The translations under genes and the position numbers were made by a program. 64,000 nucleotides of DNA from Craspedostauros australis (lineage: Eukaryota): the NCBI GenBank assembly GCA_030167865.1, contig JALAGF010005657.1, positions 1-64,000 of the forward strand, read 5' to 3'. Of this stretch, positions 1-6,328 are shown in pieces. Under the pieces are notes generated by a model. That model ran no database searches, was not told the origin of the DNA, and worked only from the letters and a program-made list of their open reading frames with translations. The stretch's first letter is position 1. The number at the start of each line of letters is the position of its first letter.

Positions 1-907
1 TGAAGAGTTGGATGCATCGGTATTGTCGGATGGATGGGACCGTGGAGAAAAATGGATCTGTGTCCACCCTTCCCTTGATTCGGTGTGGCTGCAGCGCACC
101 TGCTCGCTGTGCTCGATACTGCCTCGGGATGAGTCTTGACTCGGCCTCGATGGGTGTGTCGGCCAGCTGGGTGGATGCTTCCTTGGTCTTCGCCACCACT
201 TGTGGTGGGAGATGCTGGAATACTTTGTCGAAGTCGACATGTGTGTGCGATCGCCTGAGGCGTCGGTGCCTGTCGCAAATCGTGATGTGCGCGGCTTGGG
301 TGAGCTCGTGAGCTGTTGGTCTGCGGATTGGGATGCGTAGGGTATTGCCGTCATGGTTCGCCAGTGGGATGCTGATGTCGCCAGACGATATCCGTTGCTG
401 CCCATCGTGTTGTCGAAGTCTGTCGTAGACGCGAACTCCGGAAGCCCGCATGTGGTGCGTGTTGAATAGCGACTCCATCTGCCGTGGATGCTTGTCGAGA
501 GCCACGAAAAATGCCTTGATGAGAATCACTCCGTCGTGCGGTGAATCGTATGCCGCCACTGCGTCAACCATTGCGAACGCCTCGACCGGTGAATCCACGG
601 TCGCGCCGCGAGCGTGGAACTTCTGCGGATGCTGTCGGGTCACTTCCCATCCAGACTCGTGTACAATGTCGCCGTCCGCCCCTGAGTCTAGAATGATATA
701 GCCGTGGCTACTATTCGTTACTCTTGCCCGTCGAATCGTGTGCTCTGTATTTGGGTGGGTTGTGCGGTGACGCGACACCTGTAGCGTATCCGGGGCCCTG
801 GCCGCCGGCTTACTCTCCGCAGTATCACTCTCCAGTCCGGTGGTCTCCCGATCCTTGATACGAATGCTGACTTCCGATTGACGGCGTGTGACGGCCGCCG
901 GTGGTTG
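1..907 (-). CDS. pol: pol polyprotein (protease and integrase N-terminal part, truncated by the window edge), in frame with gag after a TGA
   Basis: Manual translation of the gag frame past the TGA at 910-908 stays open to position 1. LDSGAD protease motif at ~691-674; TDPFFS integrase core start near 60-45. This frame is missing from the ORF track because it runs off the window. Confidence 0.9.
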
Positions 908-2287
908 TCAGGTACTGTTGTCGCACGGTCCGTACTTCTTGACACGATCGGTCTTGTTGCCGAATCTCGCGCGCTTGGTAGGCTTGCGCTGAGCTTGTTG
1001 CTCTTGGGTTTTGGCGAACTCAGCAGGCTTGGCGCGTTTGAGCGCAGCCTCGCCCATGAGCTCTCCGGTGCTGCGGAAGTGGCGTGAAGACTCCACCACG
1101 AGCACTTGTGCTGCGGATGGAAGACTTCGGAACACCACGTCCGGCAGACGGTAATGGGAGGACTTCTTGCGGTCACCTGATGCCTTGTCGAACGATCGCT
1201 TGCGGTCGGGACGACTGTCCTTCTGGTGCATGCGACGGCTGCGTCCTGGAGACTTGTCGAGGTCGGCGTTGGCGAGGATCTTGTCATGGCGCATGAGCGT
1301 CTCGCGGACCCAGGAGAAGGACTCCTTCGTCTGCTGTAGGCTCGTGATCACGCTGGCAAATCGCTCGTCGCGGATGTTGCGGAAGAATCTTGCGATCTTC
1401 TCTTGGTCGTTCATTGGCTTGCCGTTGTCCTCGATCGCGTGGAGGGACATCGAGAAGTCGTTGACGAAAGTCCCAAATGCGCCGTTGCCGTCGTAGATGA
1501 GTTTGGAGAGTCTTGCCTCCTCCTCTGCCACGATGCCGGCCTGGTTCTCAGCAGACTCGTAAATGCGAACGAGAGATCGGAAAGCGGCGTAACCGCTGGG
1601 TTCTTCTGCTGTGACGATGTACTGCGCGTCGCCCTTGCAGGTTTTGGACCTGAGGACTGCGTAGAACTGAGCGTCCACTGATGCGCGGTAGTGCGCTGGT
1701 TTCTCATCCAGCATGTAGTCCGCGAACTTGGATGTGACCAGCTGTCGCATGAAGTCCGTCTTCCATTGGTACCACTCGATGTTGAGACCGCTGAACGTCT
1801 CAGCTTCCGGCATGGTGATCTTATCGTATTTCCATCCGGTGGGGGTCGATGGCGATCGACCGAGCTCCTGGTTGCGTCGTGGCGAGTGCACCACGACCTC
1901 ACGGCTTGCAGCCTCAGTGAGCTCGCGGCTTGCTGCCTTCATGTCTGCCTCCAACTGGAGCTGGATGGCTTTGAGAGCGACAGGAGTCTCGATGATAGGC
2001 ACTGTGTACCCAGAGGACTTGATGTACTCATCGATGGCGTCCCAATCGGTCGCTTGGTCGATTTGTCGCTCTTTTGCAAAAGCGAAGATGCGAAGGATGT
2101 TTTCGATGTTGATCGCGGTGAGGGTTGTTGAGAGAGACAAAGCCTGAATGATGTTCTGCTCCGGACTCTGGATGGCGCGTTCAATCCTGCCAAGCTTCTT
2201 GCGGATGAACTCCATGTCAGCGTCTTCGAGCTCAACGAGCTCCTTGATGACGGTCGTCCAGGTACGGTTGTTGATTGGTCTCGCCAT
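908..2287 (-). CDS. gag: gag protein of the copia element (~459 aa)
   Basis: ATG at 2287 in an ACCACCATGG context. Copia gag-like motifs FSGLNIEWYQWKTDF, SGYAAFRSLVRIYE and GKPMNDQEKIARFFRNI; basic C-terminus; no CCHC knuckle visible. Confidence 0.85.
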   Translation of the reverse strand: MARPINNRTWTTVIKELVELEDADMEFIRKKLGRIERAIQSPEQNIIQALSLSTTLTAINIENILRIFAFAKERQIDQATDWDAIDEYIKSSGYTVPIIETPVALKAIQLQLEADMKAASRELTEAASREVVVHSPRRNQELGRSPSTPTGWKYDKITMPEAETFSGLNIEWYQWKTDFMRQLVTSKFADYMLDEKPAHYRASVDAQFYAVLRSKTCKGDAQYIVTAEEPSGYAAFRSLVRIYESAENQAGIVAEEEARLSKLIYDGNGAFGTFVNDFSMSLHAIEDNGKPMNDQEKIARFFRNIRDERFASVITSLQQTKESFSWVRETLMRHDKILANADLDKSPGRSRRMHQKDSRPDRKRSFDKASGDRKKSSHYRLPDVVFRSLPSAAQVLVVESSRHFRSTGELMGEAALKRAKPAEFAKTQEQQAQRKPTKRARFGNKTDRVKKYGPCDNST

Positions 2288-2340: not shown

Positions 2341-2505
2341 TGTCAAAGTGCACAAGTAACTACTGTAGACGTATTGGCCCGTTGTTGCGTGCCCTGGTCG
2401 GAGCTCTTGTTCTTTATTTGTGAGTTGTCCGAGGACAAACCCCCGACCAGTATTTGTGACTAATATGATTAGTAGAGAGGTAAGAAGGTACAGAGAAAGT
2501 TGTCA
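2341..2505 (-). repeat. Putative 5' LTR (~165 bp, TG...CA)
   Basis: Inner end is fixed by the adjacent PBS. Outer end TGACAAC coincides with the stop of the upstream ORF. The segment is AT-richer and has AATAAA on the minus strand (~2413-2418). The second LTR is not in the window, so the outer boundary is inferred. Confidence 0.6.
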
Positions 2506-2862: not shown

Positions 2863-5800
2863 AAGTTGATTTTATGGGAGAGTGGAGATGAATTGTGTGT
2901 GAAGAACAAGACACCACACCGGTTGTCAACGAGCACAAACTCGCTCACACGATTGTGCCTTGTGCCCTCTTTCCAGTGTTGTTGCGCAAAAGCGCTTGCA
3001 GCAGAAGAAAGGCACCAACGCGAGGTCGTTTTGGAGCCACAACACGCAACTTCGTGTTGTGCATGTGTGTCTCGACTTTGGTTATTAGCCCGATTCGGGT
3101 AGTTGTACCTGCCCATGCGCGTACCTGTTCGTAGTTGTGTTCGTGGGTGAGATTTGGTGCCGTCGAATTTGGTCGAGGTTGAGAATTTGTGACGCCGAGA
3201 AAGTCTCTATGTGGTGTGCGTTGATATTACGTTGTTAATTAACTGAATGACTTCCGAGAATCAAGTTCATAGCGGCTTGCAGTCTTGGAAGAACGGCGTG
3301 GACGATTCCGCGCCTCACAAAGTACTCCAGGTCGTCGCAAGAGGAACGCAAACAGCATCATGAACTCTTCTTCGGGTCTGCCACAAATGCGTTTTTGTTC
3401 CTTTGCGTGGTTGTGCGTGTCTTTGTGCTCGATATGTATTGCAGTACCCATGGCGCATTGATAAAACCGACGATTTCTCTTTGGCAGCAAAGGAGGTTTC
3501 AGCAACCTTTCACGTCGTGTTGTTCGTGGGAGAGATCTTCGTTCCAAGAATTCTCTCGGCTGCTGTGCGTTGGATTCCGATCCTCTCTTATTGGTCGTCG
3601 CGTGAACACAACGAGGGAGGGAGGGAGGGAGAGAGAGGGTGATGGAAGAGAGGACGATGGAGAAGAGGGCGAAAACAAGAGATGATGATGATGGAGGCGT
3701 TGTCACAAAGAAGAAACCTGGAGGACGACGATGGAAGCAAGGAAGGAGGAGATGACGTATCACATCACACCACATTGCTGGATGTGATGGGGGCAAATAA
3801 CCCTCTATACCGCATCATTGCGTCACGAGCTACGAGTACGATTACAGACCATAAAAAAGAAGATGGTGTTGAAATTGCGGCGTTGTTCATGAGGAGGTGA
3901 AAAAAGCATCAGCGTTTACGATCCCGTTCCCAAGACCGCAGAGGCGATGCCTCATGTGCACAACACATGAAACGCTCTCACAAAATTGGCAATCTTCGAG
4001 TCCATCGTCATGTGGCGTCCTCATCTGCAACCTCAACACACGTCGATGGGGGGCGCTGCACGCTTTCTTCTTCCCCCCTTGAATTGAAGAGGCAGAAGAG
4101 GGCGATTTGGATCGGATAGTTGGTCTCTGGTCGTGAATGTCCTGTTGTTGTTGGCGTTGCCGGTAACCACGATGGAACAATAATCGGTGGAGACCTTCCA
4201 TGCTGGCGTTTGTGACTGGTGCCGCGATGGCGAAAGGAAGATGGGCGTTAGGAATGCATGCATGAATTCATTCGATGACTGGTGTTGCTGTTGTTGCAGT
4301 TGGTGTCAAGGAGGGCGTATTGGTGATGTGCATACACTTGTTGAAGTATTCTTCGTACGTTTCGCGTGCTCGTTGTGACGCCTCGCGTAATGCTGCTCTA
4401 CGCCCTTCTTCTTGTCTGACCGCGAACACTCGCATGCCGCCTTTGTTGCCCAATCGACGATCAGCCACGCAATGGATCTTGCGCTCTGGTGCCATGGTGA
4501 GGATGTCGATTATTCCATTGATGCGGTTCTTCCTGATGGTCATCATGCAGAGTGATGAAAGTGGACACGATGAAACAAGTTTAGATGTTGCAGCAGCGCT
4601 TCTCGCGAAGCGGTGAAAGAAGAAGGAGGAACCAGCAAGCAAGGGGGAGAGAGAGAGAGAGAGAGATCTCCGTTGGCAAACACCCACGATTTGGATAACT
4701 GTGAGAATTCCACGATGAGCTGCATCATGTTCGCCTTGGAGTCTTTTTCCAGGCGAATGTGAAGGATTGGTTGAACGTGGAAACTGTCGCAAAACACGTC
4801 CGCGAAAAAACTCACACTCTAGACACAATGACCATAGACTTCATCACAAACGGACGTAGGAATTGTAGATGTGGGGAGACTTCTTTAGCTTCAACAAAGC
4901 CCAATTGTTCCCACGAATCGCTGGACTAGATGGAGTGCTCGGTGGTCGTGGTCTTCGTGAACTTGTCCAGTATGCGAACGTGGTCATTTCATCAATATCG
5001 CGGGGCTTAGGTGAACTGCCTCCAACAATTAGGCTCCGTCGTGGATGTGACACGATCTGTGCGCAACGTTCGGTGACTCCGGAATAAATTTGGCGAGAAA
5101 GTGTTGCGCGAAAGGGACGAATCAGTGTTTGTGCCTCTATGTGCGAGTATCACTGTGTGCGTGTGCCTTTGTGGTCGTTTATGTCTGCGCAATGGTTGTG
5201 TGTTTGTGACCTTTGGGTTTTCTTCGACGGAGTTAGGCGTGGATCGCTCGTTGATGACGAAGGAGCGTGTTGTGTTGTGATTTATGGTCGAGAACAGCGA
5301 TGGCGCGCAAGAAGGGAGAGGAAGGGTGAAAAGGTGGAATTACTGGTGGGCGTTCCACGAGTGGTTGCGGACTGTGAGAAAGGCTGTGTGCACGTTGAAG
5401 CCTGAAAAGGGAGGGTTGTTGGGTGTGTGTTGCGTGTGTTGCAAGGCACGATGGTGCGAGTGCGCGAGCGCGCAGTAGTGGGAAATGTAGCACGGTGGCA
5501 GCGTTAACAAATGGAACAGCGGCAGAAAGGGAGAAAGCCAGAAAGGAGCAGCAACAACGAAGGTTGGCGGCAAAAGAGGACCTCCGCTCCATGGGAACAA
5601 CATCCCTCTCCACCACACACGAACGACACGAACGACAGGAGTGGTGGGAGCAACAGCAACAACAACAAGAGCAACACAAAGAGGCATCAAGTGTATCAAC
5701 TGTATCAGTCGCATCAGTGGCAACAGCAGCGCCAAGTGCGGAGGATCTCATCCAATCCCCACCAACGATCACCAACAATCACCTCCGACACAAGCAGAAG

Positions 5801-6328
5801 CAGCAGGAGCAACAGCAGCAGGAGCAGCAGGAGCAACAACAGTGACAACTCTGACAACAACACAACGAAAAGAGATCGCAGTCGATTACTTGCAGATTAG
5901 AGCAGAGCAAAGTATCAGCAACAAGACTGTCCTCAACGTTATCCATCCATCTACTTATCCATCAATCACATCAACAACAACAACAACAACAACAGCAAGA
6001 AAGAAGAGAAGCAGCATCGAACGGCGGTTCCTTGGAAGGTGTTGGAAGGTGTTGGGATTGATCTTCTTGTTTGCTCTGCCACCCATCCATTCATACATCC
6101 ATTCATTGGTTGATTGACTGACTGACTGATTGACTGCAAGTAGTTGATTGTTGATCGCTGTTTGCCCAAACAACAATCCAAGATCAGCAGAGTCTCAGAG
6201 CATCAGTGGATCGACGCCACGAGTGGCAACAGTGCATGGCAGAGCACTGCCAGTTCAGTTGTAACTGATAGAGTCAGACAGAGTCCAACACACAGAGTCC
6301 AACACACAGACCCAAACAACACGGAACC

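Follow-up and report, generated by a model that had tools for sequence, protein, structure and literature searches.

Here, we describe the 5' part of a Ty1/copia-type long terminal repeat (LTR) retrotransposon in which gag and pol lie in the same frame and are separated by a single UGA codon, followed directly by the hexamer CAA CCA. The element lies on the minus strand at the low-coordinate edge of a 64,000-nt stretch of DNA from Craspedostauros australis (positions 1 to 64,000 of contig JALAGF010005657.1, assembly GCA_030167865.1), which was analysed as a whole and is referred to as the window. Retroelements need far more Gag than Pol, and copia elements usually achieve this with one open reading frame (ORF) combined with splicing or protein turnover. 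With a probability of roughly 0.55, we propose that this element instead uses programmed readthrough of the UGA between gag and pol. An earlier note on this DNA had put forward the same reading; the anatomy of the junction, the rare stop context, the preserved pol and a nearest relative that also appears to be split speak for it, while the single-ORF organisation of the wider family and CGA-to-TGA decay in the linker of related elements speak against it.

Under programmed readthrough, most ribosomes would halt at the UGA and yield Gag, while a minor fraction, aided by CAA CCA with its C at position +4, would decode the UGA with a near-cognate tRNA. These ribosomes would stay in frame and yield a Gag-Pol fusion, from which the protease would free the enzymes, and the leaky UGA would set the excess of Gag over Pol. 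If true, the element would provide a clean and easily tested minimal six-base case, showing whether the signal works in this branch of eukaryotes, as well as a possible tunable leaky stop for algal engineering.

The gag-pol junction

The gag ORF ends, as the earlier note had it, in ...GAC AAC AGT ACC TGA CAA CCA CCG (TGA at 910..908, minus strand), and the frame then stays open for 302 further codons, through the protease motif LDSGAD and the start of the integrase down to position 2, which is the window edge and not the end of the ORF (Table 1). The 762 codons of this frame thus contain a single stop, while the other two minus-strand frames contain 7 and 19, and the chance of 761 stop-free codons, computed from base composition, is about 5e-12. 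LDSGAD occupies codons 532-537 (694..677), with the catalytic Asp533 at 691..689, and the integrase-start motif GRVDTDPFF occupies codons 739-747; near the window edge the pol frame reads GRVDTDPFFSTVPSIRQYRCIQLF.

No methionine separates the stop from the protease active site, again as previously described: the first in-frame ATG is codon 573, 40 codons beyond Asp533. Pol could therefore be made only as an extension of Gag or via an unusual start. Near-cognate in-frame starts do occur between the UGA and the protease, namely CTG at codon 485, GTG at codon 504 and ACG at codons 501, 517 and 524. A mini-intron removing the stop was considered and rejected, as the sole GT...AG stretch seen across the stop is 49 nt long, which is not a multiple of three.

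Both ORFs are well preserved. A profile of 32 relatives matches the post-stop part over its whole length without extra indels, at 203.5 bits compared to 234.7 bits for the closest pol relative (P0151, described below), and CpG dinucleotides are not depleted in the element (observed/expected 1.13). The profile match and the CpG content fit a young or functional copy, and they are also compatible with a recent single lesion.

Table 1 Features of the element at the low-coordinate edge of the window
Feature	Positions	Strand	Details
gag ORF	911..2287	-	459 codons, from ATG at 2287..2285 to the codon before the stop; no CCHC zinc knuckle
In-frame UGA, codon 460	908..910	-	separates gag and pol
CAA CCA hexamer	902..907	-	directly 3' of the UGA; +4 base is C
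Hairpin GGCGGC / GCCGUC	880..899	-	6 bp, 8-nt loop; 899..894 pairs with 885..880
Post-stop linker, codons 461-530	698..907	-	no ATG; carries SEVSIRIKD and IRRARV
Protease and N-terminal integrase (through GRVDTDPFF...IQLF)	2..697	-	cut by the window edge

Sequence context of the stop codon

The six bases directly after the UGA were described in the earlier note as a tobacco mosaic virus (TMV)-type signal, and CAACCA is indeed an exact match to the leaky-stop consensus CAR-YYA, where R is a purine and Y a pyrimidine (PMC2194720; PMC3441728). The TMV-type hexamer alone is reported to be sufficient and to be portable among plants, yeast, human and Xenopus (PMC2194720).

The host is represented here by its 17 longest ORFs within the window, located between 6329 and 62506. 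In these ORFs, CAR-YYA is found at 24 of 10,748 in-frame positions, and the element has it at 2 of 760. When both strands of the window are counted, it is found at 243 of 127,990 positions, and the chance frequency of an exact match is about 0.1-0.2%. Among the 2,223 TGA trinucleotides in the window only two are followed by CAR-YYA, one of them being the gag stop of the element. The host ORFs terminate mostly in TGA (11/17; four in TAG and two in TAA), so TGA serves the host as a regular stop codon. The base following their stops is G in eight cases, T in five and A in four but C in none of the 17, although C follows 23% of the TGA trinucleotides across the window. The UGA-C of the element is hence a context avoided by the host's own terminators.

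The host ORFs have a GC content at third codon positions of 0.55-0.84, and they are long and tightly spaced, which suggests few introns.

Identity of the element

Searches against Pfam returned nothing significant for the element's own gag and pol pieces. However, gag residues 9-342 align with the protein P0008 (24% identity, pairwise E 1e-31), which passes Pfam Retrotran_gag_2 with 35.4 bits (cut-off 27), and by this transitive homology the gag is putatively of the copia type. In the window, the protease with its LDSGAD motif is followed by the integrase start, and the element's own reverse transcriptase (RT) lies outside the window. Its relative P0151 carries RVT_2 at residues 828-1030, and another relative, P0174, carries rve at 717-803 and then RVT_2 at 1253-1453. 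Given this gag-protease-integrase-RT order, with the RT read from relatives, the sequence is that of a Ty1/copia-type element.

An exhaustive HMMER search with the read-through translation gave 152 proteins at E <= 0.001, the best listed being P0001 with 32% identity. P0151 was added by a word-indexed search and shares 49% identity over 233 residues, covering the protease and the integrase start, while a search among longer proteins gave no match. The relatives derive from marine metagenomes and one marine protist transcriptome. Three proteins encoded in the window had no exact match in the protein collection, and an atlas look-up yielded nothing but clusters of bacterial phosphate acetyltransferases.

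Comparing the element with the window using blastn and tblastn returned only the element itself and no second copy. No repeat that would define the 5' LTR was found in the window, and the 3' LTR lies past the window edge. The sequence TGGTCGGGGGTTTGTCC at 2449..2433 (minus strand), 5 nt after ...TCACA, resembles a primer-binding site, although this is only a guess; the window contains no tRNA genes and hence none matching it. In the intergenic DNA beside the element, window positions 5600-6010 and 4640-4670 hold imperfect repeats rich in CAA/CAG as well as a short run of (GA)n.

A nearest relative that appears to be split

In a maximum-likelihood tree of 34 protease-integrase segments, the element and P0151 form a clade (support 100/99) that sits within the remaining relatives. 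The P0151 ORF has 1322 amino acids and encodes pol only, its start being called at a Val, directly at VIVLDSGAD, while the best gag match to the element, P0008, is a complete gag-only ORF of 436 amino acids. Both are JGI/IMG proteins, the longest contig is 5877 nt for each of them, and the two ORFs (1311 and 3969 nt) fit into this length with 597 nt to spare. Based on this shared figure, we infer that they reside on one contig and are the gag and pol of one element. P0162, a transcriptome ORF 98% identical to P0008, has the same end residue.

The gag ORFs of P0008 and of the element both stop 117 residues past the last aligned gag residue, and when both are placed on a linker profile of 33 relatives with a single ORF, the end of P0008 falls about 10 columns short of the column of the element's stop. 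According to these alignments, the clade formed by the element and P0008/P0151 probably shares a gag that ends just before the protease region, without a Met for pol.

The single-ORF relatives have a linker motif, K.RRVTKTRRVG..DDTVEVKL.SSD.EY, about 60-90 residues before the catalytic Asp. Both MAFFT and profile alignments, which have low confidence in this region, place the element's stop within the basic K/T/R part of the motif. After the stop, SEVSIRIKD aligns with TVEVKL/TVQVSIKD of the relatives, and SEVSIRIKD and IRRARV both match conserved linker motifs of the single-ORF relatives. With the linker profile of the 33 relatives, a single domain extends across the stop (35.4 bits, E 1.2e-12), with low confidence within the linker.

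Under the reading favoured here, the stop would be fixed in the element family and not a lesion of a single copy, and the hexamer would be active in the host. More tentatively, and with somewhat less than even confidence, a marine-protist clade comprising the element and P0008/P0151 may have left the single-ORF plan and may make Gag-Pol through a UGA that replaced a basic codon in the conserved linker motif, using the six-base TMV-type signal alone. If true, this would be the first copia element with a canonical and portable readthrough signal, and near-cognate decoding of the UGA as Arg would restore the ancestral residue.

Evidence weighing against readthrough

Several observations weigh against programmed readthrough, among them findings in more distant relatives. 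A broader metagenome scan, made with a 5-sequence alignment because a 14-sequence alignment was too divergent, gave 35 loci with 23-35% identity over the longer matches, and for 26 of these the frame of the protease match was traced upstream. Eight loci remain open for 385-634 codons, with gag and protease in one ORF (L001, L003, L004, L007, L009, L012, L017 and L018), and three reach the end of the locus after 13-197 open codons (L008, L014 and L025). At ten loci the walk meets a stop preceded by at most 33 open codons, reflecting frame changes, truncation or decay. The remaining five (L005, L010, L016, L021 and L022) have an in-frame stop preceded by at least 92 open codons, and judging from their sequences all five look like decay. 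In L005, a TAA breaks the conserved gag motif IP.IP...L....WR, and L010 has a TAG inside gag and a second stop in the protease. In L021 and L022, there is a TGA at L017's Arg, with more stops upstream in L021. L016 reads AAG ACC TGA CAA GTC, compared to AAG ACT CGA CAA GTC in L017, L018, L021 and L022, and has two further stops downstream. CGA-to-TGA lesions thus occur in the gag-protease linker of a related family.

The proteins give a similar picture. In 19 of 27 relatives of P0151, the protease motif is located at residue 468-516 of one Met-started ORF, and six HMMER matches have gag and protease in one stretch (P0002, P0003, P0027, P0048, P0087 and P0127). A single ORF is the rule among these sequences and very likely the ancestral state. 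Moreover, the sister of the element is known from proteins alone, in which the stop codon, the pol frame and the 3' context are not read; a metagenome scan with patterns present in P0151 confirmed no DNA of the sister element, and scans of genome_contigs and viral_contigs confirmed none of the closest relatives.

In one plausible register, the element's ACC TGA CAA stands opposite ACT CGA CAA of L017, whose Arg is the one lost in L016. This register cuts both ways: it has the look of a CGA-to-TGA lesion, and it may also mark the origin of a leaky stop, which is plausible because Arg, Trp or Cys tRNAs can decode UGA in plant systems (PMC2194720). The element contains 18 CGA codons, and a stop could arise in it by a single transition in 72 ways; its terminal branch in the tree is long (1.08 vs 0.41 for P0151).

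Local features also count against readthrough. The codon 5' of the stop is ACC, and not the adenines that favour readthrough in this position. Downstream, the weak stem of the earlier note is present with 6 bp, but it begins 8 nt after the stop and not 7. When folded without pseudoknots, a 66-nt stretch was no more stable than its shuffles (z = -1.16; 27/200 folded at least as well), and the same was true for 145 nt (z = +0.33), so that neither length revealed a stable structure about 8 nt past the stop of the type known from murine leukaemia virus (MuLV) and proposed for Tca2. The hairpin is probably not a signal, and as such it was rejected, shuffled sequence being equally stable.

Several other relatives have unusual junctions. 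The gag-only proteins P0109, P0110, P0114 and P0145, each representing a different 50% cluster, end 4-8 residues past R[RC][IV]VTE, and an end shared across such divergence suggests that another subfamily of these elements terminates or shifts frame at a fixed site. Four loci (L015:1192, L020:995, L028:248 and L029:626-1464) change frame at one common position within the protease (query residues ~585-598), with AGT TGA GGA in the downstream frame common to three of them; a lesion that they share, an intron or recoding could account for it. In L032:574-2706, gag matches in frame 1 and the protease in frame 3, which could be a -1 gag/pol arrangement or an indel. In L002:1-5614, the C-terminal part of gag, the protease and the integrase are found at 4-1592 and the N-terminal gag matches further downstream on that strand (4973-5614), suggesting that the element is tandem or permuted in this contig.

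Alternative explanations

The main rival explanation is a private nonsense mutation, in which one C-to-T change (CGA to TGA) hit the linker of a single-ORF element and the CAA CCA is coincidental, the copy being dead or dying. The prevalence of single-ORF relatives agrees with such a mutation, as do the same change in L016 of a related family, where L017, L018, L021 and L022 have CGA, the other TGA of L021 and L022 at L017's Arg, the alignment of the stop inside the basic K/T/R motif and the supply of CGA codons in the element. Further, many windows were scanned, so a rare context may arise somewhere by chance. We nevertheless consider this explanation less likely than readthrough: the stop is the only one in 762 codons, there is no frameshift and pol is well preserved, whereas those decayed relatives that can be read further (L010, L016 and L021) have several lesions each. 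A private mutation would also have had to fall where the gag of the sister lineage ends too and directly before an exact CAR-YYA, with its chance of 0.1-0.2%, in a copy in which CpG is not depleted. Should it nonetheless be the cause, the element would be an ordinary dead transposon copy, and not a case of programmed UGA readthrough.

The stop could also be fixed but bypassed by means other than readthrough at the hexamer, such as splicing, a separate pol mRNA driven by an internal promoter and started at a non-AUG codon, or readthrough relying on distant sequences or host factors, which has been proposed for Tca2. When 300 nt surrounding the gag UGA of Tca2 were assayed in yeast, readthrough stayed at background (0.3%); a weak internal promoter was detected, and the authors concluded that the bypass is non-canonical (PMC2194720). 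Near-cognate starts between stop and protease would allow such a route here, yet no ATG precedes the active site, the sole GT...AG stretch over the stop is out of frame, and this element, unlike Tca2, has the canonical six-base signal, making another bypass improbable. Least credible of all is that the TGA is read as an amino acid, through code reassignment or as selenocysteine, and hence is no stop. The open frame would by itself fit this, but reassignment is rejected by the ends of the host ORFs, of which 11/17 are TGA, and an Rfam scan of the whole window, with the 3' end of the element lying outside it, gave no family over threshold, including the selenocysteine insertion sequence (SECIS). 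This leaves programmed readthrough as the explanation that we favour.

Comparison with known systems

The prototype of the TMV-type signal is UAG CAA UUA in the replicase gene of an RNA virus. In the present element, the six post-stop bases match the same consensus, but the stop is UGA, the hexamer is CAA CCA and the setting is a protist retrotransposon, in whose host the signal would have to act.

MuLV, Tca2 and VdLTRE5 are known to have an in-frame stop separating gag from pol (PMC2194720; PMC3441728). In MuLV, Gag-Pol amounts to about 5% (PMC2194720) and readthrough needs a spacer and a pseudoknot, while the hairpin following the 8-nt spacer in our element is no more stable than shuffled sequence. 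Tca2 of Candida albicans is, like our element, a copia element in which a single UGA lies between in-frame gag and pol, and its pol is made from full-length RNA (PMC2194720). The earlier note had named Tca2 as the classic case of readthrough in copia, but it is a poor example, as its junction gave no readthrough in a yeast reporter (PMC2194720). It further has a purine-rich 8-nt spacer and a putative pseudoknot after the UGA, and no CAR-YYA (PMC3441728), whereas our element has a bare hexamer without significant structure and no detectable close sequence relationship to Tca2. VdLTRE5 of Verticillium dahliae likewise is a Ty1/copia element with a gag-UGA-pol organisation, in which its authors sought CARYYA and found it absent, in contrast to our element; the authors describe the gag-stop-pol organisation as 'very rare' in copia, with both Tca2 and VdLTRE5 lacking CARYYA (PMC3441728).

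The CoDi elements, found in marine microalgae, are of the copia type and have the domain order protease, integrase, RT and RNase H (PR-IN-RT-RH; Maumus et al. 2009, PMC2806351). Most CoDi groups lack CCHC in gag, as does the element described here, and the groups are defined on the RT (PMC2806351), which for our element lies outside the window. The main text of that paper gives no recoding mechanism, and the earlier note's statement that readthrough had not been described for CoDi elements is consistent with our literature search, which found none. Covering diatom LTR retrotransposons, stop readthrough in Phaeodactylum and CARYYA in retrotransposons, this search listed no paper in which a retrotransposon is described as having such a signal; for CARYYA in retrotransposons, the one paper listed was that on VdLTRE5, which reports the absence of CARYYA. 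Thus, while an in-frame gag-stop-pol organisation is in itself known, if rare, this element would, if real, be the first copia case found in the literature with the canonical hexamer.

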